64,000 nucleotides of DNA from Octopus vulgaris (Eukaryota), in assembly GCA_951406725.2 (NCBI GenBank), contig OX597815.1, forward strand, positions 126,170,001-126,234,000. The letters are read 5' to 3'. Made by a program: the position numbers and the translations under genes. Below the pieces are notes generated by a model. It was not told the origin of the DNA and did no database searches. It saw nothing but the letters and a program-made list of their open reading frames with translations. This document shows, piece after piece, positions 3,514 to 49,317 of the stretch (position 1 is the first letter of the stretch; each line of letters begins with the position of its first letter).

Positions 3514-5069
3514 ATGGCTAAACTTAAACTTGGAAGTATTAGATCGGTACCTCCAATGCATCGATTGGTCATCACGCGGGACGAAGTCAAACGTGTTATT
3601 CAAGGCCTCGATGTCAACAAGGGTCACGGCCCTGACGGCATACACCCACGGGTTATCAAAGCGTTGGCTCCGGTCATCTGCGAGCCCTTAACACGTCTAT
3701 TCAATATGTCATTGGCGACGGGTGTTATACCTGCGGACTGGAGAACAGCGATAATCTGCCCAATTTTCAAGAAAGGGAGCCGCGAAGACCCGCTTAACTA
3801 CCGACCGGTTTCCCTTACATCAATAATCAGCAAGATGTTCGAAACCATCCTTAAGAAAAGTATGATGCTCCACCTCCAAAACACAGCCTCTATCTCTGAT
3901 TCCCAACGCGGCTTCGTGCCGAAGAGATCATGCTTGACCAACTTACTGGTAATGGAAGAATTGGTGACGCGCATCCTCGATGATAGTGATGCTGTTGACA
4001 TCGTTTTATTGGACTTTGCCAAAGCTTTTGACTCGGTAAACCACCGCCTATTACTTGTCAAGCTTCAAGCATATAGTTTCCATCCGGATATTGTACGATG
4101 GGTTGGTGCCTTCCTCTCAGATCGCTCCTTCCAAGTCCAAGTTAATGGTTCGCGGTCCGACGTCTCCTGTGCGAGCAGTGGCGTGCCTCAAGGTTCAGTG
4201 CTTGGGCCCTTATTGTTCTTAGTCTTCATAAATGACTTGCCCGACGACCTCACGCAACACACCCTTCTATTTGCCGACGATATCAAACTGGTCGCTCCTC
4301 GCGGTGATATAGAGGATCTTCGTCGATGCCTCCACCAAATTTGGAAGTGGTCTAACGAATGGGACCTGTGTCTGAACGTGTCAAAGTGCTGTCATCTGCC
4401 TGTTGGCTCTCCTCCTGCAACTCAACTTGATTTCGAGCCGGGTCGTCTGCTGCTGGAGAGGACCGATCAGGTAAAGGACCTAGGTATCTTGGTGGATTCC
4501 TTCTTTTCGCCTTCGGCCCAGTGCGTCCATGCTGCCAACAAACACGCGGAATTCTGTTCTTGATTCGACGGTCATTCGGAATGCTCACAGCAGCCATATT
4601 CCTACCACTCTATGTCACGCTGGTGAGACTCATATTGGAGTACGGGATTCAAGCCTCTTCTCCTTATCTCCTCAAAGACATACAGCATCTCGAAAGAGTC
4701 CAGAAGCTGGCTACCCGCATGGTTCATGGTCTCAAAAATTTGTCCTATGAAGAAAGGCTGAGGACGCTCGACCTTTATTCTCTTGAAAAACGCCGCCGCC
4801 GTGGTGATCTCATTCTCGCCCACAACATCATAAGCGGAAAGTGTAACCTCTCGAAAGAGCTGTTCTTCACTCCTGCTCCAGAGCGTCGGCTGCGGGGTCA
4901 TTCCGAAAAGCTCTACCTGCGACGATTTCATCTCAATCGAAGGAGAGGAGCTTTCTCCGTCCGGGTTGCGGATCCGTGGAACAAGCTGCCAGACGAGATG
5001 GTGAAGATGCCGACGACCGCTTTGTTCGAAGCCTCCCTTGACCTCAAGTGGCCTGAACACTTTACATGA
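3514..5069 (+). pseudogene. CR1 ORF2 reverse transcriptase (partial, one frameshift near 4545)
   Basis: ORFs 3514-4563 and 4521-5069 join into a continuous RT plus C-terminal region. Confidence 0.9.
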
Positions 5070-6440: not shown

Positions 6441-8581
6441 AACTTGTAACATAAATATATGCATTCACTTTTATATATACTGAGGTGTACACTTTGTAAG
6501 CAAATTAAATCCATTCATTATCACCTTGAATTTTAAATACTTTCTATATTTGTCTTTCAGTATATTCTTAATGTTCTTTTTGTTTCTACTATCGTCCGAA
6601 AATCGAAAATGAGAAACACAGTATCGATTCGTGAGGTTTCAGCTTCATATCTAGTAATATATAAATTTACTACTCGGTTCTCCCACTTTTCTTTCTCGTT
6701 TACACATATTTGTATAATTATCTCTTCTTTTTGCTATTGAGTACTGTACAGAGAACGATAAATATAATCTGAAAACGGAAAAATAGCCGCTGAAGTTTTC
6801 GACAAAAATTATTTCTATTCCATTCTGAAGATACTGCTTGATTTTTTAATTAAATAATTTAAAGATTCCATAAGACTAAGAAGACATGCGTTTATTTTGG
6901 CGAATATTATATTCGAATACAAATCACGAATGAATTTCTAGTTTTTAGAGAATTACAGCAGTAGAAAAATATCTTGTAATCTCGCAAAGATAGTGAAATA
7001 CAAGAAGGTCTACAACTGCTTTCGAAGCTTCTTAAACAAGAGCTCAACTTTATATGATTCGAAAACAATGAAATCACGAAAATGTTATTTGCAATTATGT
7101 TCCATTCACAACAGCTACAGAGCAACACATACATAGCTACACCCATAGATACAACATGCACATACACGCCCACTAACTCACGCACACAGTTTCCTATGTA
7201 TATGTATACACACACACAAAAAGAACATATTATCATATATTGCGGCTCGGCTATAGAATATTATTCTGGAATCTTTTCCATACCACCCACTTTTGTCCAC
7301 TATTTATTCAACATGCAGCTTGCACTGCAACATTCTAACATTGTTTCCAAAGAACTTTCTTTTGTTTTTTCATCTTCACTTTTCCTAGACGAAGGGCCAC
7401 AATCCGAAAGGTACAACATTCCACTGGTTTTTCTCACAACATAAAATTAATTTCTTTGTAGTCCTGTTTGCTTTTGTTGTTTTGTTTCTGAAATCCTACC
7501 TATGTTGCATAGTATTCCTGATCCGATAGAATTTATAACCTTCGGGGATTTAGTTTCTAGTTGACGTATGCGCATTTTCGATGAGTCTACTTTTAATGCT
7601 GCTTCTCATTAATATATTCATCTTCTTCAACACATAGCATGTTCTAATATGTCAAGGTATTGAAAAGATCTATGTAAATATTATGAATCAATTCATCTTA
7701 TAGGTCCAATTTAAAGAGCAGCGCAGTTGAAAAAATTCTTAATCTAATCTCTTTTCATTCCCCAACGAGTCATAGATATAAAATCATTATAAGAAGCTCG
7801 TTTAAACTTAGCTGTTCTTGCTTCCTATATTAAACGTTTTATTCAAAAAGGCAGATCAGTTTAAAAATTAATGTTCCCCCGCCAAGTTATTACTTCATGA
7901 CCCAAACATGAATTATTTTCGAAGAAATTTTTTGGCTAAAGATATAGCGTATAACGTGAAAGTATAAATATGCCGTTTAGAACATAGAATGGCTTACCAG
8001 TAAATACATTTGAGATGCTTTTTTTATCTGCTTAAAAATGATTTCAGAAACCCGAAAAAAGTTCGCCATGATTTACCCAAGTATAACTGGTTTTCGAAAG
8101 GATCCTGCCCATTTCTGCTAAATTACACATGTCCATCTTAGAATATGTTAGTCCACACAATGGTTCGCTTCGATAAACAGCAAGATGTTCTTTGTGTTAA
8201 GTGAAAAGTTCCTCCTGTATGCTGGAAACTTTAAATCAGAAAATCATAAATATCGAATTTTTGCAGTGTTACTCGTGTTACCTGCTGTGTAATTATTTTT
8301 TTTATTGTCTAATGGCTGAAGTTTACTTTGCTGATTTTTTAAAATAGAGTGCATAACCACGAACTTCAATTAATTGTTTCAATTCTTTACTCTTTTACTC
8401 TTTTACATGTTTTAGTCATTTGATTGCGGCCATGCTGGAGCAAAACGACCCCAGGACTTATTCTTTGTAAGCCTGGTACTTATTCTGTCGGTCTATTTTT
8501 GCCGAACCGCTAAGTTACGGGGATATAAGCACACCAGCATCGGTTGTCAAGCGATGTTGGGAGGACAAACACACACACATA

Positions 8582-8966
8582 TCTCTCTCTATATAAACGG
8601 CAGTTTGTCTGTGTGTGTTTCTGTGTGTCTGTTTGCTTGTACCCTCACCCTGACCACGGCTTTCAACCGATTCTGATGAAACTTGACACACACATAGCCC
8701 AATGTCATAATTCAAAACTAACGCAGCGAAAATTTTGAAAAGTTCCCCCAGTTCTGAAAAAAATCGATAAATTCGACATGGGGTCGAGAATCAGAAACAC
8801 AAACCGCAAACTGTCTAGGGGACGCAACTCCACCTTTTTTTACTCTCAAACAAAATTTACCATCATTTTTTTTCCATTTTTTTGCTATTTTTTGGCTATA
8901 ACTCTCTAAAAATGCTTTATAGTTATTTCCCTTACAAACCTGAGCAACACCGGGCGATACTGCTAG
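8582..8966 (+). mobile_element. Non-autonomous Helitron (about 385 bp)
   Basis: 5' TC start, subterminal hairpin cctgagcaacaccggg, 3' CTAG, inserted between A and T with no TSD. Confidence 0.75.
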
Positions 8967-9129
8967 TATATATATATAAACATATATACGACAGTTTTCT
9001 TTCAGTTTCCGTCTACCAAATCCACTCATAAGGCTTTGGTCGGCCTGAGGCTATAGTAGAAGACACTTGCTCAAGGTGCCACGCAGTAGGACTGAACCTG
9101 GAACCATGTGGTTGGTAAGCAAACTACTT

Positions 9130-11394
9130 TATTTCAAAACTTTTGCCATAAAGGCATGATACAGAGTAGCTTGCGGGCTGGACAAAGACATTGATGAGGT
9201 GAATGATGACAAGGATGATATTAATGGGAGAAGACAAAAAACTCCCGCCGATTTTCTGCTTCTCTAAAACATTATTCTCTTATTTTTTCCCCAGAGAAAG
9301 ACAAAACGAGGTAATGAACCTCTTACTTCAGTATTACAATTTCTGGACTAATAGTCCATTTAAGAATTGGGGCGTTAAGCCTCTTAAACACAATAGCATG
9401 CAATAAACATTAAACATTATACAGTAAACATTATAACACTGAGCCTTTTCAACCTCTCGTCATTATTCCTCTCCAACATCGTTTGTGCCCGTATACTCCA
9501 CCATCACCCACGCCTCATTCAAAACCAAGGTGGTATCCGAGCCAGCGTCGCCCGGCCACAAGCGATATTCCTCATTGAGTCCCTGCAGCCTATAACCCAC
9601 AGACACCGTTATGACCTCCACAGCTACCTGCGGAGGCCATTCGGAATCTTGTGTGAAGGTTAAAGGTACTCTCTTATGGTGATTTTCCACCATCTCTTCT
9701 ACGTCTCCGCCTCTGTAGAAGAAGACCAATAGTTCCTCTTCCTCCGGGTTCGAGGTAGCCAATTCTACCGTTGGTGGCACAATTCCCCCAACGGTGTCTC
9801 TTTCCCTGCCAGTGGCACAACCCCTACCGGCAAGGTTCCGGGACATTCTGGTGCTATGTCACCGACTGCCGGCAATGTCCTGTTTCTCTTCCTCTTCCTC
9901 TTTTTTCCCTCTCAACTGAGGGAGGGTGCGTCTCCTCCGTGACCGGGAGATTCACCTCTCCTCCCTCATCCCCAGGATCCTTCGTGAGCACCCATTGTTG
10001 CTCTCCTTCCCTGAGCAGTCCTCTGTCTCCTCAGCCGCCTTCGTTCCCTCTTCTACAGAGGTCACAATTGACTACTCCAGGCCTTTGCTCTGTTCCTGAG
10101 GACAGTTTTTCTTTATATGGCCAGGCTCCAGGCACTGATGACACCTGGCGGGGACGACCCTCAAGAATCACTGGGTACCTGCACCCGGCCATTTTCAAAA
10201 AATCTGACGTAATTAGATTCATGGCTGATTGACCCATCCCAATCAGCCGCAGGAAGAATTTTCACGTCGAGGAACCTGGCTCCGCTGCCACACAGACCCC
10301 GACGGATAGTATCCTCTATCCACTGGGGTTCAAATTCCGGGTGACAAACCACAGACCCAGACACTCGTCAATTTTTTCCCGCAATAAGTGGGAAGAAACA
10401 AAATGTCTTTACTCTCAACGGGCTGGCTCGCAAAACTGCGAGCCTCCTCTGGGGTGTCAAACAGCAACCACACCGTTGCATGATTGATTCCCCTAGAGAT
10501 ATACTTAACGGTTGGCAGATGTTCCGCCAACTCCTGCTCAATCATCTGCTTGGAGAAGACGGTAATGGTGTCGAGAACCTTCGAATACGTTCTCAACACC
10601 ATCGTTCTCTCCTCTTGCTGTCTGAGCCGCTCCTTAGGTGGGACAACCACCCACTCTACAATCTTATCCGTATTTTCTTGCCATGTTTTAAAATAAAAAA
10701 TAAAAAAGCTCCAAAACAATAGTTCACAAAAAAAGGAAATAGAGAATTCAAAAGGAAGCAAAAAGGAAGAAGAAAGAAAAGCAAACAGTTCAATACAAAA
10801 AGTCTCAATAGAAGAAGAAAACAACAGTTAAAAAAAATACAGCAAAAAATATTCTGGGCATTCAGGTACTCCAAGCCCTATGGTACTCCAATTAGAACCT
10901 GAACTGATCCACTTGAAATACAGCTTTCCAACGTAGTTGTAAAATACAAACTATTTACAAACAGCGAACGACTTTTGGTGGCAGGATACGTCACCAAACT
11001 ATACTTCTCACAACGAGAAATAATTTTCCCTTCATGTGAACACTTAAAATACAGCTTTCCAATAATGGTTAATGTTGTTGCAAAAACATACACTGTTAAA
11101 AAGTGAACAACTTTTGGTTGAAGGATACACCCACCAAACTGTACTTCTCACAATGAGAAACAAATTTTCATTTACTATGAACCATATTGCTGAACCGCAA
11201 GTAGACCAGCATCCTGAATCCAGCGAGGATTCCCTGTTTGTAAAACATATAAGCACAGACAACGACCCTCACTGGGTCCAAGAGACAAAAGTCTTACCTT
11301 GCAGCAGCTTCTTTTGGCAGGCTAAGCACTGCCGGCTATCTTCTTCAGTGCACAACACAATGACACATGCGTACACTGACAACAGAGACTCATG
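9130..11394 (-). mobile_element. ORF1(gag)-only non-LTR retroelement (Tx1/L1-like ORF1), inserted in SINE head
   Basis: 16-bp TSD ggtaagcaa(a/g)ctactt at 9114-9129 and 11395-11410; CCHC knuckle CHQCLEPGHIKKNC; AATAAA at the 3' junction; no RT or endonuclease detected. Confidence 0.75.
9463..10684 (-). pseudogene. Gag-like ORF1 with CCHC zinc knuckle (frameshifted)
   Basis: ORF pieces 10330-10824, 10161-10364, 10031-10237 and 9463-9846 are collinear with the homologue at 47700-48507. Confidence 0.7.
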
Positions 11395-12237
11395 GGTAAG
11401 CAAGCTACTTACCACACAGCCACTCCTTCGCCTGCACTCTTTATTAATTGTTTTAATTCTTTATTGAAACGGCATGACTGAAACTTGTCATACTTTTCCA
11501 TTTTTTAAATTTTGATTGCCTCCCTTGCAACGTTTCAACACTATAATTTTAAACCGCACATTTCAGCATTTTTAACAAAAAAAAAATTTATGTATACCCA
11601 CCACGTCTGATTATAGACTTTTTTTGTAAGATATATTCAAGTGCTTCGTCATTCACTTGCAATATTTTTATCGCATACTTTTAACGTTTCAAGTATATTT
11701 CTTTATATTCTAAATGTGAGCATTTAAAGTAAGCTCCAATTGTTAATCGTGTTTCTTCTTTTTCCTTCTTCTTTACTTCGCTTTCCTTTTCATTCTCTTT
11801 AATTTCTACCTCTTCAGTTTTTTTTCTTTTTCTTCTACTCTCCGCTCACTTAGACTGCTTAGCTCTATATTTTCACATATATCTCCCCATTCTTTAGCTC
11901 TCTTGCCTCCATTTTTTCTCCTTTTATCTGTTTCTCTCTTTGAAATTGTAAAATTGCGCAAATAAAGTATCCTCTGACAGTTTTCTTCTTCAACGAGCTT
12001 TATAAAAATGTACAAAAATATGCAAACAAATATGGAATCTAAAATCAAATTTCACCCTTACATTTTATTTTCTGAAAAAACATACTTTAGAAAAAATATA
12101 CTCTACTGATTTCCATAATTACTTCAAATATATATTTTTTTCTCATCAGTATCTATTTATTTCAATGTTTATTGCCGTGTTTGTGGGCATCAAACTTTCT
12201 TATTTCTTCTGCGAGAAGCTAAAAAGAACAGATACCA

Positions 12238-15524: not shown

Positions 15525-17095
15525 GTATGTAGCCATGCTGAGCCACCAACAGTACCATCACTTTTCCAACGGCCATTCCTATGTCGTTGGCTTTTGATAA
15601 ATGAATTTGATATTACTGCCCTTCTTTGAGTTTCTGGCTGTGATGTAGTTGCAGTTGGGATTTTGGATAGAAGAATATCAAGATGCTTCTTGAAAACATT
15701 TACCTCCAAGTAGATCTTTCGGATTTTTTCAGCAAAATGTTAAGTAGCTGTGAGCCTTTGAATCCCAATCTATTACAATACCTGGACCTTACTCTAGACG
15801 GAATATGTGAGCCATTTGGAACAGCACAGTGGTGTTCTTTCCAGGGGCTGGTATAACTCTCGATATCAAAGTTTGGAGTTGGCTCCAAACTTTTCAGTAT
15901 CTCAAAGAAGCTGAAGTGTTTCACTGATGTAACGTCTTTGGTATACTATCGCTGAATTGCCTCGAGTTCCGCTATTAAATTGACAATGTGGGATGTCCAT
16001 AGTTGAGAGTAGTATCGCAATCGAGCTCGTTCAGTTTCCTGGTCCCTTGTTCTCAAAGTTCTGTGAATCCATCCATACATTCGCCGTTATCTTGATGATA
16101 TGTACATGAAGCGATGTATCGTTGTTCATATCAATCCTCAGTTTCCGCACTGTGTTTCACTCTGGGATTGCCACTCTTTTTGGTCCAAAGTATATCTGTT
16201 GTGACACGTTAGCAGAAACTGGCTGATAGCGGAGCGCTTGAAATTTTCCTGCATTAAATTGCATGTTGTTTTCTTCAGCTCTTTTATATATGGCACCTAA
16301 TCTGTCTCTAGAAGGCTAGCATCGAGAGGACTTTTCATTTTGTGTTGTCGACTTAGCTAGTAAGGGTGGCTGCATGCATAAATGACAACATATCTGAGAG
16401 GCCCACCACAAAGAGCAGCGGCCTCAAGGCGGTTCCCCGAGGCACTCCACTCGCTATTAATGTCTCCTTGGAGAAGGTTCCATTGGCTGCTACTACCTGA
16501 CTTTTGTTTCTTAAAAAGTTATGTAATCACTTTTCCAGTTTTCCAACTATATTGAGTCCTCGCAGATTGTGATACATCATCAAAGATCTTTGCAAAAGCG
16601 AGATTTATCGCATCCACCTTTGAGTAGTTTTAACACCCAATCATAATGCTGCAGAAGCTGTATATGGGAGTTTCTTTTTGAGCCGGAGCCACGCTGAGTA
16701 TCAGGGAGCAAGTCATAATTTTCTAGGAAAGAGATTACCTTCCTCCTGACAATTTGTTCTATGACCTTGCGGACATATGAGATTAGAGGAACAGCCCTAT
16801 AATTTTTAGCATCTGCTCTGCTTCCTCCTTTACAGATAGGATATATTATGTACGCTTTTAATTTTCTGAAAAATCTACCACTTCCAAGAAAGCTCCAGAA
16901 GTGGATTTGAAGTGATCTTGTTAGGGAATCTCTGCATTGTCTCAGGAGGATTGCCGGGAATCCATCAATGTCAGTGGCTGAATTTAAGTTCATTTCATGA
17001 ATGGCTATATCACAACAGTCTCCTCTATCTCGAAATAATTGGTAATTGCTATCCCTTCACGTAGAGGTGCAGTGTCAAAGAACTTCATCGGCATA
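15525..17095 (-). mobile_element. Old degraded CR1-like LINE
   Basis: SATDIDGFPAILL, KGGSRADAKNYRAVPLISYVRKVIEQI, DFAK-like segment, SGVPRGTALRPL, FKKHLDILLSKIP; many stops and frameshifts. Confidence 0.85.
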
Positions 17096-18860: not shown

Positions 18861-19127
18861 CTCAATGTCTTGAATATACATTCTCTAAACTGTTTCTAAT
18901 CCAGTGAAGTGACCTCAGGATTTACTCATCGGGTGTGATTGGTTACCTTACATAATTCCCAGTTATTCTATATCATTCGATGCAGTTTGCCAGAACCTGG
19001 CTTATACTAGAGCACTTGAATGGTACCTATCTGGATCTATTATCTCTATCCATTTACTACATACATACATACATACATTCATACGCACGCGCGCGCACAC
19101 ACACACATAACTCTCTCTCTCTCTCTT

Positions 19128-19348
19128 TTACTCTTTTACTTGTTTCAGTCATTTGACTGCGACCATGCTGGAGCACCGCTTTTAGTCGAGCAAATCGACC
19201 CCAGAACTTATTCTTTGTAAGCCTAGTACTTATTCTATCGGTTTCTTTTGCCGAACTGCTAAGTTACGGGGATGTAAACACACCAGCATCGGTTGTCAAG
19301 CGATGTTGGGGGACAAACACAGACACACAAACATATGCACACACATAC

Positions 19349-19412
<64 letters not shown>

Positions 19413-19592
19413 TATATACATATATACGACAGGCTTCTTTCAGTTTCCGTCTACCAACAAATCCACTCACAATGCTTTGGTCGGCCCGAGGCTATAGTAG
19501 AAGACACTTGCCCAAGGTTCCACGCAGGAGGAAAGAACCCGAACCATGTGGTTGGTAAGCAAGCTACTTACCACACAGTCACTCCTGCGCCT
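19128..19592 (-). mobile_element. CORE-like SINE family B, intact, with central (TA)n
   Basis: Head ggcgcaggagtgactgtgtggtaagtagcttgcttacc; core ccttgggcaagtgtctt; tail gaaacaagtaaaaga. Confidence 0.9.
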
Positions 19593-28125: not shown

Positions 28126-28171
28126 CCATGCGACTGCAGTCATGCTGAAACGAATAAAAGATTATACTCTC

Positions 28172-28555
28172 TTTCTCTTTTACTCTTTTACTTGTTTCAG
28201 TCATTTGACTGCGGCCATGCTGGAGCACCGCCTTAAATCGAGCAACTCGACCCTGGGACTTATTCTTTTTGTAAGCCCAGTACTTATTCTATCGGTCTCT
28301 TTTGCCGAACCGCTAAGAAACGGGGACATAAACATACTAGTATCGGTGGTTAAGCAATGCGAGGGAGACAATCACAGACACATAAACACACACACGCATA
28401 TATATATACATATATACGACGGGCTTCTTTCAGTTTCCGTCTACCAAATCCACTCACAAGGCTTTGGTCGGCCCGAGGCTATAGCAGAAGACACTTGCCC
28501 AAGGTGCCACGCAGTGGGACTGAACCCGGAACCATGTGGCTGGTAAACAAGCTAC
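28172..28555 (-). mobile_element. Family B SINE, head truncated
   Basis: Matches 19128-19570; stops at ggtaaacaagctac. Confidence 0.85.
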
Positions 28556-28616
28556 ATAAATTTGATTTAAAATTGTTATATTGAATTTTTCCCTGTAAAT
28601 TTTGGAATTATATTCC

Positions 28617-28728
<112 letters not shown>

Positions 28729-28825: not shown

Positions 28826-30111
28826 AAAGAATATTATAGACGAGTTAGATCAATACTAAAAACAGAGCTCAATGCTAAAAACAAGATAATAAGTATCAAC
28901 ACTTTAGCTGTCCCAGTTATAAGTTACAGCTACAATATCCTTAACTGGACACGAAATGAACTGTCCAAAATAGATAGGAAAACAAGAAAAATACTGACAG
29001 GATCTAGGATGCATCACCCAAAATCTGACATAGAAAGACTATATATACAACGTATAGAAGGTGGTAGAGGCCTTATACAGCTGGAAAACTACTATAAAAT
29101 AACCACCATAGGACTGCAAAAATACCTACTTCAGAAGGAAGGAAAACTGATCCAGATAGCAGCAAAACACGAGCAAAACAAAAAACTGTTCTCAGTATTT
29201 AAGGAAGCTGACAAATACAAACAAGAAATCATACCACCTAATAAACACAAAGAAGAAGAAGAAGATGATCAAGAAACAACAAAAGCTATAAAACAAATGA
29301 AATCCAAACTAAAAATAGAACAGCAACGAGCCATGATAAAACGATGGCAAGAAAAGCCCCTTCATGGTAAATACTGCACTAAACTAAACGCAAAAGAAAT
29401 AGACAAAGAAAAATCCCAGCAATGGTTGAGAAGCTCAGGACTCAAAGCAGAAACAGAGGGATTTTTAATTGCAGCACAAGACCAAAGCCTCCCCACCAGA
29501 AATTACCAAAAACATGTAATGAAAAGAAATATTACAAGTAACTGCAGAATATGTGGAGATGGACAAGAAACAATAAATCATATTATCTCTAGCTGCCCAG
29601 TCTTGGCTAAGAAGGAATATATTCACAGACATGACAGAGTTGGAACCTACATACATTGGAAGCTATGCCAACATTATGGAATAACAACAGAAAAAAGATG
29701 GTATAGGCACACACCAGAAAAGGTCACAGAAAACGAGAAAGCAACCATACTCTGGGATATGCCGATACACACAGATAGAGAAATTAAGGCCAACAGACCA
29801 GATATAGTTGTCAGAGATCATGAAGAAAAAAATGCTTTCTAATTGATGTATCAATACCGGCAGATGACAACGTGTCTCTAAAAGAAATGGAGAAACTCTC
29901 AAAATACAAAGACCTGGAAATAGAGGTAACTAGAATGTGGAACCTGAAAACAGAAACAATTCCTATCATAGTAGGTGCATTAGGCATGATAAAAAAATAT
30001 TCAGACAAATACATAACAAAAACACCAGGACTTACAAACACATATAACATACAGAAAATTGCACTACTAGACACTGCACACATCCTACGCAGAACACTTT
30101 CCATACAATAA
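28826..30111 (+). pseudogene. Dong/R4 ORF C-terminus: RT thumb, CCHC, restriction-like endonuclease (frameshift near 29830)
   Basis: ORFs 29009-29842 and 29872-30111. Confidence 0.88.
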
Positions 30112-30205
30112 CCATCAGAGCATCACAACAAATCACAGCACATACCCAAGGCACACAGAGCTGCGCTCGGTAGTGAAGTGAAAGCACGCTATAAAAATAA
30201 AACTA

Positions 30206-30210
<5 letters not shown>
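28826..30210 (+). mobile_element. R4/Dong-clade non-LTR retrotransposon (RLE type), 5'-truncated, in (TAA)n
   Basis: KEYYRRVRSILKTELN, HPKSDIERLY..GGRGL, WLRSSGLKAETEGFLIAAQDQ, CRICG..ETINHIISSC, RHD, RPDIV..IDVSIP..KLSKY; TAA arrays on both sides. Confidence 0.92.
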
Positions 30211-30285
<75 letters not shown>

Positions 30286-31038
30286 TGATAATAATAAAAA
30301 TAGGGAATATAATTCCAAAATTTACAGGGAAAAATTCAATGTAACAATTTTAAATCAAATTTCACAATAGTAAATAGTAGTAAATACTACTATTTACTAC
30401 TTATTTTATAGTAAATATTATATATATATATATATATATATATTATATGGGCGACTAATTCGAAATTTTACAACCTAAAGACAGAAATATATACGTCACT
30501 AAAGATTAGTGCACCTAGTCACTTTAGCGACTAGGGGCAAAATATTTCATAAGCTCTGTTGTGACTCACCAGGCTAACAATATTATTTAGATCAGTGAAG
30601 GACATCCAGGTATTCTTATGGCAGTGTCCAAGGTTATGGTTCATCACAATTCTATATTTTAAATCCGTGGGTGGGCTCCAGACAAACTGGTTTTCATAAG
30701 AAACAAGTTTAAAATAATGGTCATTACATATTTTCCCTTTATAACAGCAATTTTGACTTACAACTGTTTCTGTGAGTGTTTCTGATTATCTTTTATCTTT
30801 TAATGTTTACATGTTTCAGTCATTGGACAGCGGCCAGGGTGGGTTTAGCTGAACATATCTATCTCAGGACTTATCTTCAAAAGTTTATTTTTCTTATAGG
30901 GTCTCTTTTTTCAGAATGTTATGATTGTTAGTGAGGTGGGTTTAACTAGATTTCCCCTCCCCTTCTAGATATAATGAACCACAATAATTTTCATTGACGA
31001 AGAATATTCCTCCACTATTACATACGTTTAACCTACCT

Positions 31039-34128: not shown

Positions 34129-34150
34129 TAATTCCCCCCCCCACATATTG

Positions 34151-35769
34151 CAGTTGCGGCCAAAATGTTCAGAACGGCATTGTTTTCGCCACAAAAGTAG
34201 GTATAAGTTTTTATCAAAGTTGTTTTATATTCTATAATTTTCACAGACAATAAATACAATATTACTTGTTATTGTCTGAGATTTTGGTGTAATTTGAGAG
34301 GATAATGCAAAAGTTATGGATGATTTAGTGATTTACTGCAAAACCCATGGCGGCCAAAATGATCAGAACGGTTGAAAAAATAACAAAATAATCAAAAATG
34401 ATAGAGAATACTGGAATTATGTAATATTTAGTGTGAAGCCCTTTAGCTTCAAACACACTTTGACATCTTCGACTGCATGAGGAAATTAAATTTTCAATTT
34501 CTTGCTAAGTGATCTTATTCCATTCTTCCTGAAGGGCATTCCATAATTGCTCGGTTGTTTTAGAATTTCTGGCTTTCGAACGTTCTCCTAGAATATTCCA
34601 CACATTTTCAATAGGATTGAGATCTGGGATTTGAGCAGGCCAATCCATAATAATAACCTTGAGAAAGTTCATGACCACCTTAGCCTTGTGACATGGGGCA
34701 TTGTCCTGCATGAATATGGGTGGTCGCTTAGTTGAATTTCTCAGCACAGGCAAGACATGATCTTTTACAAGTTGTTTATAAACTCCTGCATTTACCTTTC
34801 CATATAATCGCACCAAAGGGCCCACAACATCTCCAGATATCATCCCCCAAACCATGACACTTCCTCTACCGAATTTAACACTAGTTTTAAGGCATTTAGG
34901 CGACAATTTTTCACCTACTTTTCAACGAACGTACCTTCTCCTATCTGAGCCAAATAACATAAACTTAGATTCATCACTGAAATGCACCGTTTGCCATTTT
35001 TCTTGAGACCACAATACATGTTCGGTTGCAAAGCTAAGACGACACTTTTTATTTTTGGGGCTGATCAGTGGCTTCACTGCTGGTGATCTTGCTTGTAGGT
35101 TATGTTCAACTAAACGATGAGACAAGTTTTTCGAGATAACGTTTTCTTCAGTACAATGCTCATTTCCCGAGAAACAGCAGCAGCAGTTTTAAATCTGTCC
35201 TTTTTAACCAACTTTACCATAGCACGATCTTCTCTCTTGGTCGTTTTTCTTGGCCTATCTGTAGACTTTCTTGCTTCACACGAACCACAAACATCAAAGA
35301 CCTTAAGAATACCGTGAACAACACTTTTTGACTTGTTAACAATCTTTGCAATAGACCCAATACTTAAATTATCCTTCTTTCGAAGCTTAATAATCTGCTG
35401 ACGAATTGATAACGGAGTAAGTGGCATTATATTAACAAAGTACACTGCAGATATTCTTACTAATGTTTAGTAAACGAACCGTCACGTAAACAAATTCAAA
35501 ACATTAGAGTTCGCCGGTTAAATATACTAAAACATGGAGTAAAAGCAACCGTTCTGATCATTTTGGCCGCCATGGGTTTTGCAGTAAATCACTAAATCAT
35601 CCATAACTTTTGTATTATCCTCTCAAATTACACCAACATCTCAGACAATAACAATTAATATTGTATGTATTGTCTGTGAAAATTATAAAATATAAAACAA
35701 CTTTGATAAAAACTTATACTTACTTTTGTGGCGAAAACAATGCCGTTCTAAACATTTTGGCCGCAACTG
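34151..35769 (-). mobile_element. Full-length Tc1-like DNA transposon, IR/DR type
   Basis: 224-bp TIRs 34151-34374 and 35546-35769 starting CAGTTGCGGCC, internal DR gcggccaaaatg(t/a)tcagaacgg, TA on the right flank (TG on the left). Confidence 0.95.
34425..35427 (-). pseudogene. Tc1 transposase (DD34E family), disrupted
   Basis: HTH region, DRPRKTT, FSDESKF, SVMVWG, FMQDNAPCH, WPAQIPDLNPIENVW; frameshift at about 35120, stops at 34922 and 34505. Confidence 0.92.
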
Positions 35770-36100
35770 TAAATATATATATATATATATCTATATATAT
35801 ATATATATATACGCACACACATACTATATATAAATATATATTTATATATATAGGTTTGTTTTTATGTTCAGTTCTAATAAAAACAATTTTACATTAATCT
35901 AATGGATTACTCAATACTTTTGTAGAGTACAAATCTATTATTTTAATACAAGCTAAGCCAGCGTTGGACGATAGAAGGACAAATCCGTATTTACCTTTGT
36001 AAGTACGTGTATGTCAGCATATATTGTCGGTTCATATTCCCGACTGTACCTTGGTGATTTTACTATTCAAATACCTGATTCTTTCGAATCCTGAAAATTG

Positions 36101-40007: not shown

Positions 40008-41283
40008 TATTAATATTTGTTCTTGATTCTGAATTGTGCATGTTTATCTTTAAATTCAGAGGCACATACCTCGGCTCAAACAAAACTTTATTAATAGAAA
40101 TAAACACCACCAGAATCAACACAATTTTGCCAACGCGAAACAAATTTATTTATGCCAGTAGCGTAAAAATTCTGCGCTCTGGTGGCGATGAAGTCGTTGA
40201 AGGCGTCTTTTGGCATCGTCTTGGTTTTTGAAGCATTTCTCACGCAGGAAGTTGTCGAGATGCTTGAAAAAATAGTAGTCGGCAGGCAAGTGGTCTGGTG
40301 AGTATGGCGGATGAGGCAGAGTTTCGTAGCCCAATTCGTTCAACTTCTGCAGGGCCAGTTGTGCGACTTGCGACCGAGCGTTGTCGTGGAGAAGAACTCG
40401 TCCTTTTCTATTGACCAATGCTGGCTGTTGTCGGAGTTTTTTATGCATTTCATCCATTTGCCGACAGTACTTCTCCGCCGTAATGGCTTCGCCTGGATCC
40501 AAAAAGCTGTGATGGATGAGACCGTCCGCAGACCACCAAACAGTAGCATGACCTTCTTTTGGTGCAATTTTGGCTTCAGGAAGTGTCGTGGAGCTTCATC
40601 AGCGTCCAACCATTGAGCTGAATGTCGCCGGTTGTCATAAAGAATCCACTTTTCATCGCAAGTCACAATCCGGTCGAAAAACGGATCGTTCTTGTAACGT
40701 AAAAGCCAACACTTCAAAACGGCATTTTTTGGTGGGGTGGGGGTGTCGTTCAATTCGTGCAGCACCCATTTCTCAAGAATCTTTGTTTTTCCAATCTCTT
40801 TCAAGTGGTTGGAAATTGTTGTATACGTTACATCTAATTCAGAAGCAATCTCTCGAACAGTTGTGCGTGGATTGATTCGACTAAGGCTCTTAGTTGATCG
40901 TTGAAGATGGCCAACCACTACACTTATCATCTTCAAAACTCTCGTCACCGCTACAAAATTTCTTGAACCACCATTGTGCTGTACGTTCATTAGTGGTTCC
41001 TGGGCCAAACCCATCGTTGATATCACGAGCTGTTTCAGCAGCTTTTCGGCCTTGTTTGAACTGGAATAAGAAAATTGTACGATTTTGCTTTTTGTCCATG
41101 TTGTAGTCAATGTTCCGGAAAAAATGACCTAATTATTAAAAAAAAAAAGAGTGGCACGATTAAATAGAGCGAAAAACGGGCTTTAAAATGATATATAAAA
41201 TCAAAGTAATTTAACGAAAATTAATTTGAAAATACATCATTTAAAACCAAACTCTAAAATTTCGCAAGAACTTTCTTGACAAC

Positions 41284-45806: not shown

Positions 45807-45968
45807 TGGCGCAGGAGTGGTTGTATGGTAAGTAGCTTGCTTACCAACCACATGGTTCCAGGTTCAGTCCCAGTGCGTGGAACTTTGGGCAAGTGTCTTC
45901 TGCTAAAGCCGCGGGCCAACAAAAGCCTCTGAGTAGATTTGGCAGACGGAAACTGAAAGAAACCAATC

Positions 45969-46633: not shown

Positions 46634-47039
46634 TTTGTGTGTGTGTGTGTGTGTCTGTGTGTCTGTGTGTGTGTGTCTGTGTGTGTGTATGTGTGTCTGT
46701 GTGTGTGAGCGTGTGTGTGTGTGTATTATCTTTTACTTATTTCAACCATATTAGACTATAGCTATGCTGAGGCATTGCCTTGAACGGTTTTAGTCGAACA
46801 AATCGACCTCAGAACTTGTGTTTATAAGCTAGGTTTTTCATCTATGCGTCTCTTTTTTGCCGAACTGCTAAGTTACGAGATGTGAGCAGACCAATACTGT
46901 TTGCCAAGCGGTGGCGAAATACAAAGACAAAGCAAAGACACACACACATAGATATATACATAGATGTACACATACATTTACATGCATATATACATATACA
47001 TGTATATATATACATATACATGTATATATATGTATATAT

Positions 47040-47117
<78 letters not shown>

Positions 47118-47122
<5 letters not shown>

Positions 47123-47338
47123 TAATCCAAACATGAAAACAAAAAGAGAAAACACAACAACGCGAGGACGTGGAACAAGTATAGTATTATTCGACGCTCA
47201 GGAAAGGAAAGAAAGAAGGAGTATTTAACGTTTTGAGCGGAGCTCTTCGTCAGAAACATAGGAAAACGAAAGATCCAAGGAAGGGAAGACGGAGGAAAAA
47301 AATCGCCAACGGTACACACGCGGTCACATTTTGAGTGT
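47118..47338 (-). mobile_element. Penelope-like terminal fragment in (TA)n with hammerhead motif
   Basis: Minus strand CTGACGA-a-gagc-tcc-gctc-AAAAcgtt..agcgTC. Confidence 0.55.
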
Positions 47339-47340
47339 AT

Positions 47341-47399
<59 letters not shown>

Positions 47400-47556
47400 T
47401 GCACTCACGTAAATGTATACGGCGGGCTTCTTTTCGGTTTCTGTCTATCAAATCCACTCATAAGGATCTGGTCGACCTGGTGCTATAGTAGACGACACTT
47501 GCCCAAAGTGCCTTCAGTAGGACTCAACCTGGAACAATGTGGAAGAAAGCAAACTA

Positions 47557-49110
47557 TCATTCTTCCCTTCCTTCTCCTTCCGGACGCCCAGTCAAATATC
47601 TAGCCGCCTGCAGAGCAGACCGCGTTGACAGGCGGGAGTTCAGAAAGAAGAAGGCGAAGTAACTTTTATTCAATGTTTGTGTCACGCAGTGTCACAATTT
47701 ATAACACCCGTTCTCGGTCGCCCAAGCCGCCCAAGTATTCATCGACACCCCCACCCCCTGAGATAAAGGAGGATAAAATCCTCTTCCTCTCCGGGGGGGG
47801 GGAGGGGTCTCTGTCTGCTCTGTCAGTGGCACAACTTCCACTGTCTCCCCCGCCACCTTACTTTCCTGTGCCGGGGCCATGTTACGGCTCCGGGGGCAAT
47901 CCTTCTTAATGTGGCCTCGCTCCAGGAACGAGTGACACTCGTGAGTGGGGGATGACCCTCAAGTATCACTGGATACCTGCAGCCAGCCATTTTTAGGAAG
48001 TCCGGGAATACCATTTCGCCTGCGGCCGAAGGTGAAAATTGCTTTTGATCCCTCCCAGTCGACCGCTGGCGTCCTTCTCACATTTAAGAGCCTGGGCCCG
48101 CTATCCCACAAGCCTTGCCGGATGGTATCACCAATCCATCCTGCTTCTGTGCCCGGGGGTAATCCACATACCCAGGATTTTATCACCTTCCTCCCACAAT
48201 AAGTGGGGAGGAACAAAATTTCTTGCCCCTTAAGGGGCTCGCTGGCAATTGTGCCAGCTTCCTCGAGGGTAGCAAACAGTAACCAGACCGTTGCAAATTT
48301 GGTCCCCCGTGAAATAAATTTTATAGTTGGCAGGTTGTCTGCCAACTCTTTCTCTATCGCAATCTTGTCGAAGAGGGCGATAGCACCTCGCGACCTAGAA
48401 TAGGTCCGTAGTACCACCGTCCTCTTCTCAAGATCTTTAATCCACTGTTTGAGAGGGACCACCTTCCCCTCCAAAGCAGCGGCACCGTTTATTTTTGCCA
48501 TGTGCAAAAAAAGTCTTAAAAGTTAAAAGAAAATTTCAAATGTCTAAGAAAAAGTCAAAAAAATGTACACAAAAAGTTAACAAAAACAGTAAAAAAAAAC
48601 AATGAAAGTCCAATAAATAAACAGTTCAAAACGAAAGAAAAAATCAGGAAAGATAGACGGAAAAAAGAAGAACAATTCACACAGCAAAAATTCAATTTCC
48701 TGGCCAAATGTGGATATGGTCCTTGGTATGATTCTTTTTTTTCCGGTAATTGGTAAAATAAATCCAATAAATCCAAACACAACACTGGCTACAGCAATCG
48801 GTAACTGCAACAGTAACTGTAATAGGTTCTAATCATTCGGGCGAGGATATGCACCCCCCCTTTTTTTTTCACAATAAATTCACAATATACAGAAACAGCA
48901 GCCGCCGAGAGCAGCCGAAATTGTCCCAGAGCTGGGCGAAATTTATTAACAAAATATTACAATATAATAAATTACGCTCAGCTCAGATAAATCAAAATCA
49001 CCTACCTCGAAGATCTCTGTTTTTGTTCTTTTTTCTTGTAATTGGACGGAGCTAACAAGCCTACGTCCACTCTGGTTCAGGTTGAAGAAGTTGACTAACT
49101 GCCTATGTGC
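47557..49110 (-). mobile_element. Second ORF1(gag)-only retroelement, divergent homologue of 9130-11394
   Basis: RTVVLRTYS..LPTIKFISRG..ATVWLLF..ILFLPTYCG..WVCGL..DFLKMAGCRYPVILEG..CHSFLERGHIKKDC; degenerate TSD gaaagcaaacta / ggaagcaagctt. Confidence 0.72.
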
Positions 49111-49184
49111 GGAAGCAAGCTTCTTACCACACACATACATCCGCGCGCCCGCATGCACGCATGCACGCACATACATACATACAT

Positions 49185-49317
49185 TATTATGGCTGCCCCC
49201 TCGTTATCGAGTATGGCCATTGCACGAAGCTTAACTGTTACTGGTGCTGTGATCGAATGTGACTTTTTAGCCCAGCCAAAGATCTACAATGTCTTGCACA
49301 GAATTGGCAACTAAAAC

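Follow-up and report, generated by a model that had tools for sequence, protein, structure and literature searches.

In Drosophila, the targeted non-LTR element HeT-A encodes a Gag-like ORF1 protein and no reverse transcriptase (RT); it belongs to the Jockey clade, adds to chromosome ends, and makes no target duplication. In mammals, HAL1 (half-L1) is a nonautonomous LINE derivative of several origins that encodes ORF1p only (PMC5753468, citing Bao and Jurka 2010), and the accessible text of that source states no site specificity for it. Several LINEs of the Tx1 clade reside in other transposons, as Tx1 does in Tx1D in Xenopus and the crocodilian Tx1-Mar does in Mariner-N4_AMi; Tx1-8_Crp and Tx1-4_AMi target LTR elements, and Tx1-9_AMi targets Harbinger elements (available parts of PMC4494074). 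In the same source, a LINE counts as target specific when over 20% of its flanks are of one sequence type (the Kojima criterion), and the nonautonomous SINEU-3 is described as sharing the target of Tx1-Mar, with 77 of 88 copies flanked by Mariner-N4_AMi and an expected duplication of 16 nt. According to the accessible portion of PMC5203782, type I ORF1 is linked to the Tx1 clade in animals other than mammals and is also found in Jockey-group LINEs. A further group, the Dada DNA transposons, targets the tRNA anticodon arm, and the term SINE is absent from the main text, so far as it was available, of both papers that describe them (PMC3706591, PMC8869645).

Octopus genomes are dominated by tRNA-Core and tRNA-Deu SINEs (PMC8967140), and L1-Tx1 families have recently been active in O. 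vulgaris, for which the available parts of one study give 13 families with 421 insertions and, in the supplement, 80 families (PMC13282606). An octopus element like the one reported here is not described in the accessible portions of PMC3747384, PMC4758252, PMC8967140, and PMC9115989, and four of the eight files of the PMC9115989 transcriptome supplement contained no match to its motifs. Among the openly accessible papers listed in our literature searches, we found no description of a target-specific octopus Tx1 or of a LINE inserted into a SINE; Repbase entries or supplements may already name this ORF1 family.

The window analyzed here (the whole 64-kb stretch of DNA, to which all positions refer) is microsatellite- and SINE-rich animal DNA in which the heads of one SINE family, family B, occur as five intact and two split copies. 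Each split copy holds an insert, termed E1 (insert copy 1) and E2 (insert copy 2), and all of the ORF1 elements lie on the minus strand. From these two fully read loci, we conclude that E1 and E2 are separate, now broken ORF1-only copies at one base of different SINE copies, probably set down there by the borrowed RT and the site-preferring endonuclease of an unseen Tx1-type LINE. The features concerned are as follows.

47557..49110, minus strand: E2, an ORF1-only insert of 1,554 nt (junction reading, ORF search)
49111..49150, minus strand: SINE head 5' of E2, degenerate upstream of about 49133 (head alignment)
48502..49110, minus strand: E2 5' UTR, about 610 nt, T-rich ahead of the ATG (sequence)
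47700..48501, minus strand: E2 ORF1, ATG at 48501, likely stop near 47700 (profile match, iE 5.8e-52)
47557..47665, minus strand: 3'-terminal ~110 nt of E2, an imperfect pyrimidine/purine hairpin without poly(A) (folding versus shuffles)
47545..47560, minus strand: degraded 3' copy of the E2 target-like duplication, with the core TAGTTTGCTT at 47556-47547
46785..47556, minus strand: body and tail of the SINE hosting E2, about 80% like other copies, interrupted near 47031-47345
9130..11394, minus strand: E1, an ORF1-only insert of 2,265 nt (profile match, iE 1e-42)
11394-10685, minus strand: E1 5' UTR
10684 to about 9463, minus strand: E1 ORF1, with frame breaks
11395..11436, minus strand: SINE head 5' of E1, 95% identical to an intact head
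8384..9129, minus strand: SINE body and tail 3' of E1, interrupted at about 8580-8966
19124..19591, minus strand: empty-site (intact) copy of the same SINE
near 45808 (plus), 55884 (minus), 57810 (plus), and 62001 (plus): further intact heads of the same SINE

The initial annotation, made from the letters alone, held that the two SINEs are split at the same position and that the second insert measures roughly 1.55 kb, and both statements proved accurate. The E2 junction strings, gaaagcaaacta at 47545-47556 and ggaagcaagcttcttaccacaca at 49111-49133, lie where it placed them. At the E2 locus the head ends in AAGAAGCTTGCTTCC and is followed by the 1,554 nt of foreign DNA and then by the body, which restarts from TAGTTTGCTT; at the E1 locus the head ends in AAGTAGCTTGCTTACC and is followed by 2,265 nt and then by the body from AAGTAGTTTGCTTACC. 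Both heads end in GCTTGCTT(A)CC and both bodies restart in TAGTTTGCTT, so that heads and bodies break at the same SINE base, and both inserts are oriented along the SINE direction. Target-site-like duplications of ~15 nt flank both inserts. In E1, the 5' copy (AAGTAGCTTGCTTACC, 11410-11395) and the 3' copy (9129-9114) are identical at 15 of 16 positions; in E2, the 5' copy is AAGAAGCTTGCTTCC (49125-49111), and the 3' copy is degraded (10 of 15 matches ungapped, or 11 with one gap), in line with a host SINE that is only about 80% like other copies.

No ORF2 lies between the termini of either insert, both being too short for one, and E2 offers no coding room for an RT or endonuclease. The distance from ORF1 to the 3' junction is about 140 nt in E2 and 335 nt in E1. 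The E1 3' UTR terminates in AATAAA (9133-9128), whereas poly(A) and AATAAA are both absent at the E2 3' junction, where the terminal hairpin has a z score of −1.76 (11 of 200 shuffles were equally stable). Within the E1 5' UTR, 10910-11182 comprises two tandem units of ~131 nt that are 74% alike, as in LINE promoter monomers.

Other repeats populate the window. The microsatellite middle of each host SINE holds an additional, unrelated insertion (47031-47345 and 8580-8966), part of the former being presumably Penelope derived. Reverse-transcriptase LINE remains occur at 3514-5069 (plus; RVT_1, E 1.8e-33) and 16580-16993 (minus), and neither showed a link to the ORF1 elements. A young, headless SINE B copy (28167-28558) begins no more than about 2 nt from the target site and abuts one arm of an inverted repeat (28558-28617 and 30303-30361), inside which lie microsatellites and a LINE piece. 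That piece (28830-30210, plus), a LINE 3' fragment between (TAA)n runs, has a zf-RVT match (E 6e-06) and RHD and PDIVV motifs; we take it to be Dong-R4-like. A Mariner-type transposase fragment lies at 40340-41014 (minus; Transposase_1, E 2.2e-08), and a 227-nt inverted repeat, 96% complementary, at 34148-34374 and 35546-35772, 1,171 nt apart, is probably a young DNA transposon. One metagenome match to the head motif, with neither SINE body nor ORF1, was set aside as a chance match.

The initial annotation had also read E1 and E2 as independent insertions by two subfamilies at a conserved site, with unrelated 5' UTRs and genomic flanks, and here the comparison bears it out. The 3-kb upstream flanks did not match at E ≤ 0.01, and the downstream flanks shared four short matches of 31 to 63 nt, so that the flanks beyond the SINEs are not homologous. 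The 5' UTRs gave no blastn match better than E 0.18; their local alignment score of 75 (shuffles, 57 ± 7) was reached by 5 of 200 shuffles, a likeness that is marginal at most. In the 3' regions, there were no significant frame pairs beyond one 20-residue piece, and the DNA score was at shuffle level. Likeness between the two host SINE bodies is 81%, or about 0.23 changes per site; the E1 host body is 91 to 92% like two free SINEs, and the SINE body tree is star-like, with branches of 0.033 and 0.20 for the two host bodies. The two host heads are different SINE variants, TAG..TACC and AAG..TTCC. The divergence of the host bodies, set against an ORF1 dS of 1.56, argues against an old duplicate or a composite unit. 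Assuming 7 to 12 heads per 64 kb and a tolerance of 1 to 5 nt, we put the chance of a second random insertion at the same site and in the same orientation at about 0.5 to 5 × 10^-4; together with the further ORF1 pieces at the same head described below, this supports SINE targeting over chance, as the initial annotation had proposed. We are highly confident that E1 and E2 were inserted independently at one shared SINE site.

Judged by eye to be roughly half identical, the two ORF1 proteins share 59% amino acid identity over 181 aligned codons in four ungapped blocks, the frames of which were chosen by best identity and fit the reading frame of P0001, a gene model from Octopus sinensis that is uninterrupted and 61 to 62% identical to both. 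Mismatches by codon position number 47, 42, and 89, and pN/pS is 0.35 (bootstrap, 0.27 to 0.47). With a dN of 0.28 and a dS of 1.56 (near saturation), dN/dS is about 0.18, so that ORF1 has been under purifying selection between the E1 and E2 lineages. Every motif originally listed as shared is indeed present in both copies; the motifs stand in differing frames, however, and there are several frameshifts per ORF1, overlooked in the initial annotation, those of E2 falling near 48045-48005 and 47947-47944 and within runs of C and G close to 47790 and 47755. Because both ORF1s are frameshifted, these are dead copies, and selection would have acted while both lineages were active. By tblastn and DNA alignment, homology extends from the ATG through the zinc knuckle, which reads CHQCLEPGHIKKNC in E1 and, with the second Cys lost, CHSFLERGHIKKDC in E2 (a degenerate CCHC near 47900-47945); the C-terminal halves showed no alignment beyond the region of the EEE motif (near 47775 in E2) and one short piece.

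P0001 is the only close protein relative of the insert that we found, and a word-seeded protein search with it returned only P0001 itself. An exhaustive profile search yielded 78 proteins at E ≤ 0.001, a set with at least one spurious member (P0051, rejected). The distant relatives for which an organism name was obtained (12 of the 20 looked up) all come from Octopus species, and on these grounds we treat the window as octopus DNA. In a tree, E1, E2, and P0001 form one clade (support 100/98) apart from 11 other relatives. The proteins P0002-P0081 make up a large and diverse Octopus family of RRM-RRM-CCHC ORF1-like proteins without a Pfam model, and several of these gene models bear uninformative or misleading names. 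No related loci were found in metagenome, viral, or prokaryote contigs.

In the predicted structure of P0001 (pLDDT 75.6), a CCHC knuckle comes after two beta-alpha-beta domains. Its top Foldseek matches are tandem-RRM proteins (E about 4e-5), and each half matches RRMs at Z 7 to 9 (VIA), which are modest scores. The zf-CCHC family was matched in 9 of 39 aligned family members at E ≤ 1, and the Atlas neighbors of the protein are CCHC and ZCCHC3-type RNA-binding (RBD) clusters (0.90 to 0.93). Pfam gave no significant family for either ORF1 piece of the window, and Transposase_22 was not among the Pfam matches listed (25 of 33 families) for P0001 or the 39-member alignment. A PDB sequence search found zinc knuckles only, and a solved LINE ORF1p was absent among the fold-search matches listed, which excludes nothing; no long fused forms (1092 to 3115 aa) were found, which is weak evidence. 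We regard the protein as a predicted type I ORF1p with two RRMs and one CCHC knuckle.

Further copies were sought in contigs from four public runs (X1, X2, X5, and X8, with three organism labels), aligned to 47402-49310 at 80% likeness. In each of the four runs, every one of the 30 bins of this region had coverage, for the most part from contigs unlike the window in some of their letters; summed contig depth serves here as a rough guide only and not as copy number. Among the 15 of 65 joints listed, 11 run from the SINE body to 49111-49113, that is, they are uninterrupted SINEs, while 3 run from within the insert (48222 in two contigs, 48881, and 49041) to 49112-49113; the remaining joint falls in the flank. 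The insert-to-head joints come from run X5 alone, at 80% likeness, with a short side of 21 to 22 letters and a class that is often repeat derived. In the two 48222 contigs, 32 and 22 letters lie between 48222 and the head and, read by hand, continue the ORF1 frame; the residues before EILFLP are ELANQLLEDS and RFRLVGN, those in E1 and E2 being SFASQPVESK and SEPLKGQ. To judge from these letters, the two contigs look like copies of further subfamilies, 5' truncated at different points and joined to the same head within 2 nt.

Elsewhere among the contigs, X1 record 8 (24 differences in about 190 letters) spans the 5' junction to 49130, and X2 record 16 departs from the 5' UTR at 49087 into 331 unlike letters and is possibly an off-target copy. 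In two contigs among the matches listed, the same end of the head runs into unrelated repeats of the flank (49187 and 49221), which means that breaks near the site are not confined to the ORF1 element. Both window copies are on target, as are five contigs among the matches listed, with one possibly off target, in a search that was biased toward heads. Variant contigs lie across 47616-47706 and 47702-47824 (their two-sided alignment being inferred from the distance to the contig end), which suggests, with no contig spanning a full copy, that the short layout from ORF1 to the 3' end is a family trait. The bin 47594-47657 was 3.5 to 13 times as deep as the next bin upstream in X1, X2, and X5 and 2 times as deep in X8, and the most deeply covered part of the E2 5' UTR was bin 48874-48937. 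An AATAAA in E2 at about 47664-47669 was considered as a family signal and is probably not one, since most of the depth in X1, X5, and X8 differs at 47665. X5 record 21 (48256-48479), a 316-nt ORF1 contig 86% like E2, has a depth of 1790, far above that of the other listed X5 records, and may represent a young subfamily with many copies in organism B. The right flank of E2 (49190-49310) is another very abundant repeat, with a summed depth of about 10^6 in three runs.

In the reading that we favor, the element would be transcribed from its own 5' UTR and its ORF1p, with the predicted RRM-RRM-CCHC arrangement, would package the RNA of its own element; action on its own RNA would explain why ORF1 was kept under selection. 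The ORF2p of the partner LINE would make a first nick at GGT/AAG, on the strand opposite the SINE head, and prime reverse transcription there, the T-rich primer from this nick pairing with an A-rich RNA end, and a cut in the other strand about 15 nt downstream would give rise to the duplication. These steps of target-primed reverse transcription are those of established LINE biology. The insert parts the A-box-like from the B-box-like motif and so would silence that SINE copy, and such an abundant SINE would offer a target at which insertions do no harm. Since the element lineages (dS about 1.6) diverged long before the host copies did (about 0.23), the site preference is likely to be long-lived, and its first target may have been a tRNA gene or an older SINE. 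Because no ORF2 or partner was found, placement in the Tx1 clade rests on the ORF1 type, the duplication length, and the AATAAA.

The age of the lineages relative to the host copies also fits a different account, in which a tRNA gene (the region from D-loop to anticodon) or an older repeat is the actual or the original target and the SINE is hit because its head resembles it. The insertion site lies between the A-box-like TGGCTGTGTGG and the B-box-like GGTTCAGTCCC motifs, and Dada DNA transposons set a precedent by targeting anticodon-arm sites of tRNA genes (available text of PMC8869645). All junctions, on the other hand, are SINE heads (at two loci and in five contigs, although the contig query held a head and could show only heads), an intact head had no Rfam tRNA match at E ≤ 10, and ARAGORN found zero tRNA genes in the window. 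We consider this account unlikely.

A detail of the duplications bears on how the site is chosen. Both 3' duplicate copies (9114-9129 and 47545-47560) read AGTTTG, both 5' copies read AGCTTG, and the C is found at that position in all five intact heads and in the SINE at 28558; moreover, the E2 3' copy agrees with the E1 3' copy at 10 of 10 letters and with its own 5' copy at 8 of 10. By a rough estimate from only two decayed copies, coincidence would produce the shared C-to-T difference in a few percent of cases, and the difference hints at an element-borne target copy. It is conceivable, though doubtful, that a long-lived, protein-coding, RT-less lineage is a second-order SINE parasite with an RNA that terminates in the element's own target copy (TAGTTTGCTT is identical at both 3' junctions, and both 5' junctions have AGCTTGCTT), so that RNA-DNA pairing, besides a borrowed endonuclease, picks the site. 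Were the T constant in young copies, the element would bear target sequence at its 3' end.

Alternatively, the copies could be remnants of two-ORF autonomous LINEs that lost ORF2 individually, by internal deletion or internal priming, with no replicating ORF1-only family behind them. E2 does end in a purine run without poly(A), and the 3' regions of E1 and E2 do not align. Yet two separate copies lack any ORF2 while both keep their junction duplications, variant contigs run across 47616-47706 and 47702-47824, the zone expected for ORF2, and the 5' UTR bin is about as deep as the 3'-end bin, unlike in a long LINE that is often 5' truncated, even if depth is a rough measure. We therefore rate individual loss of ORF2 as rather improbable.

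Quite improbable, in our view, is a hot spot, in which the SINE head is palindromic, nick prone, or priming friendly for many elements and no sequence-specific endonuclease is involved. A DNA hairpin forms over the site in three of the five intact heads (z −3.26, −2.13, and −1.80), a third SINE (28558) is broken at nearly the same base by an inverted-repeat element, and in two contigs the end of the head adjoins other repeats. The other two heads, however, including the AAG..CCC variant closest to the E2 host, fold no better than shuffles (z −0.38 and −1.20); the other LINE and DNA transposon pieces of the window never occur at the site with a duplication, and all ORF1 cases share a single orientation.

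Finally, that head, insert, and SINE body form one composite spread via the SINE tail, or that the loci are an old segmental duplicate, is very unlikely and already largely refuted, for although the C-to-T difference common to both 3' duplicate copies would suit it, the SINE parts are far less diverged (81% alike) than ORF1, whose synonymous sites are near saturation, the UTRs are unalignable, the E1 body is closer to free SINEs, the flanks are unrelated, the 5'-truncated ORF1 pieces retain the head that a composite would lose first, and the insert contains long T runs, which halt RNA polymerase III.

If the targeted insertion of ORF1-only copies by a partner LINE is confirmed genome-wide, octopus would possess an undescribed sequence-specific LINE endonuclease, and the element would provide a natural test of why nonautonomous elements keep ORF1 and of whether a preference for tRNA genes can shift to SINEs. 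Every insertion would also disable one SINE promoter.

Compared with the described systems, the octopus element is, like HeT-A, a coding, RT-less, targeted element with an ORF1. It resembles the Tx1-clade LINEs in its repeated insertion at one site of a dispersed repeat, its ~15-nt duplication, and its type I ORF1, and differs from them in that the target is a SINE head and the copies are without ORF2, hence without an RT by which to assign a clade. Like SINEU-3, it would be a nonautonomous element that inherits the target of its partner, but SINEU-3 is short, noncoding, and U2 derived, whereas the octopus element is 1.5 to 2.3 kb long with a protein under selection. With Dada and the LINEs Dewa, Keno, and Mutsu it shares the use of multicopy, small-RNA-type sequences as safe targets; Dada, however, is a DDE transposon with duplications of 6 to 7 nt, and Dewa uses tRNA-Leu spacers (accessible parts of PMC3706591 and PMC8869645). 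Like HAL1, the octopus inserts encode an ORF1p-type protein and no ORF2, but their ORF1p is of type I (two RRMs and a CCHC knuckle), where HAL1 proper requires the type II (Transposase_22) protein, their host is a mollusc, and they have a single common target site. If confirmed genome-wide, the system would join an ORF1-only parasite with a selected protein to site-specific SINE insertion, two known habits whose pairing we did not find described. It is no new class of system; the habit is known, and what appears to be new is the landing site. It is best read as a rider of the HAL1 type that is moved by a target-specific LINE of the Tx1 type, not as HAL1 proper.
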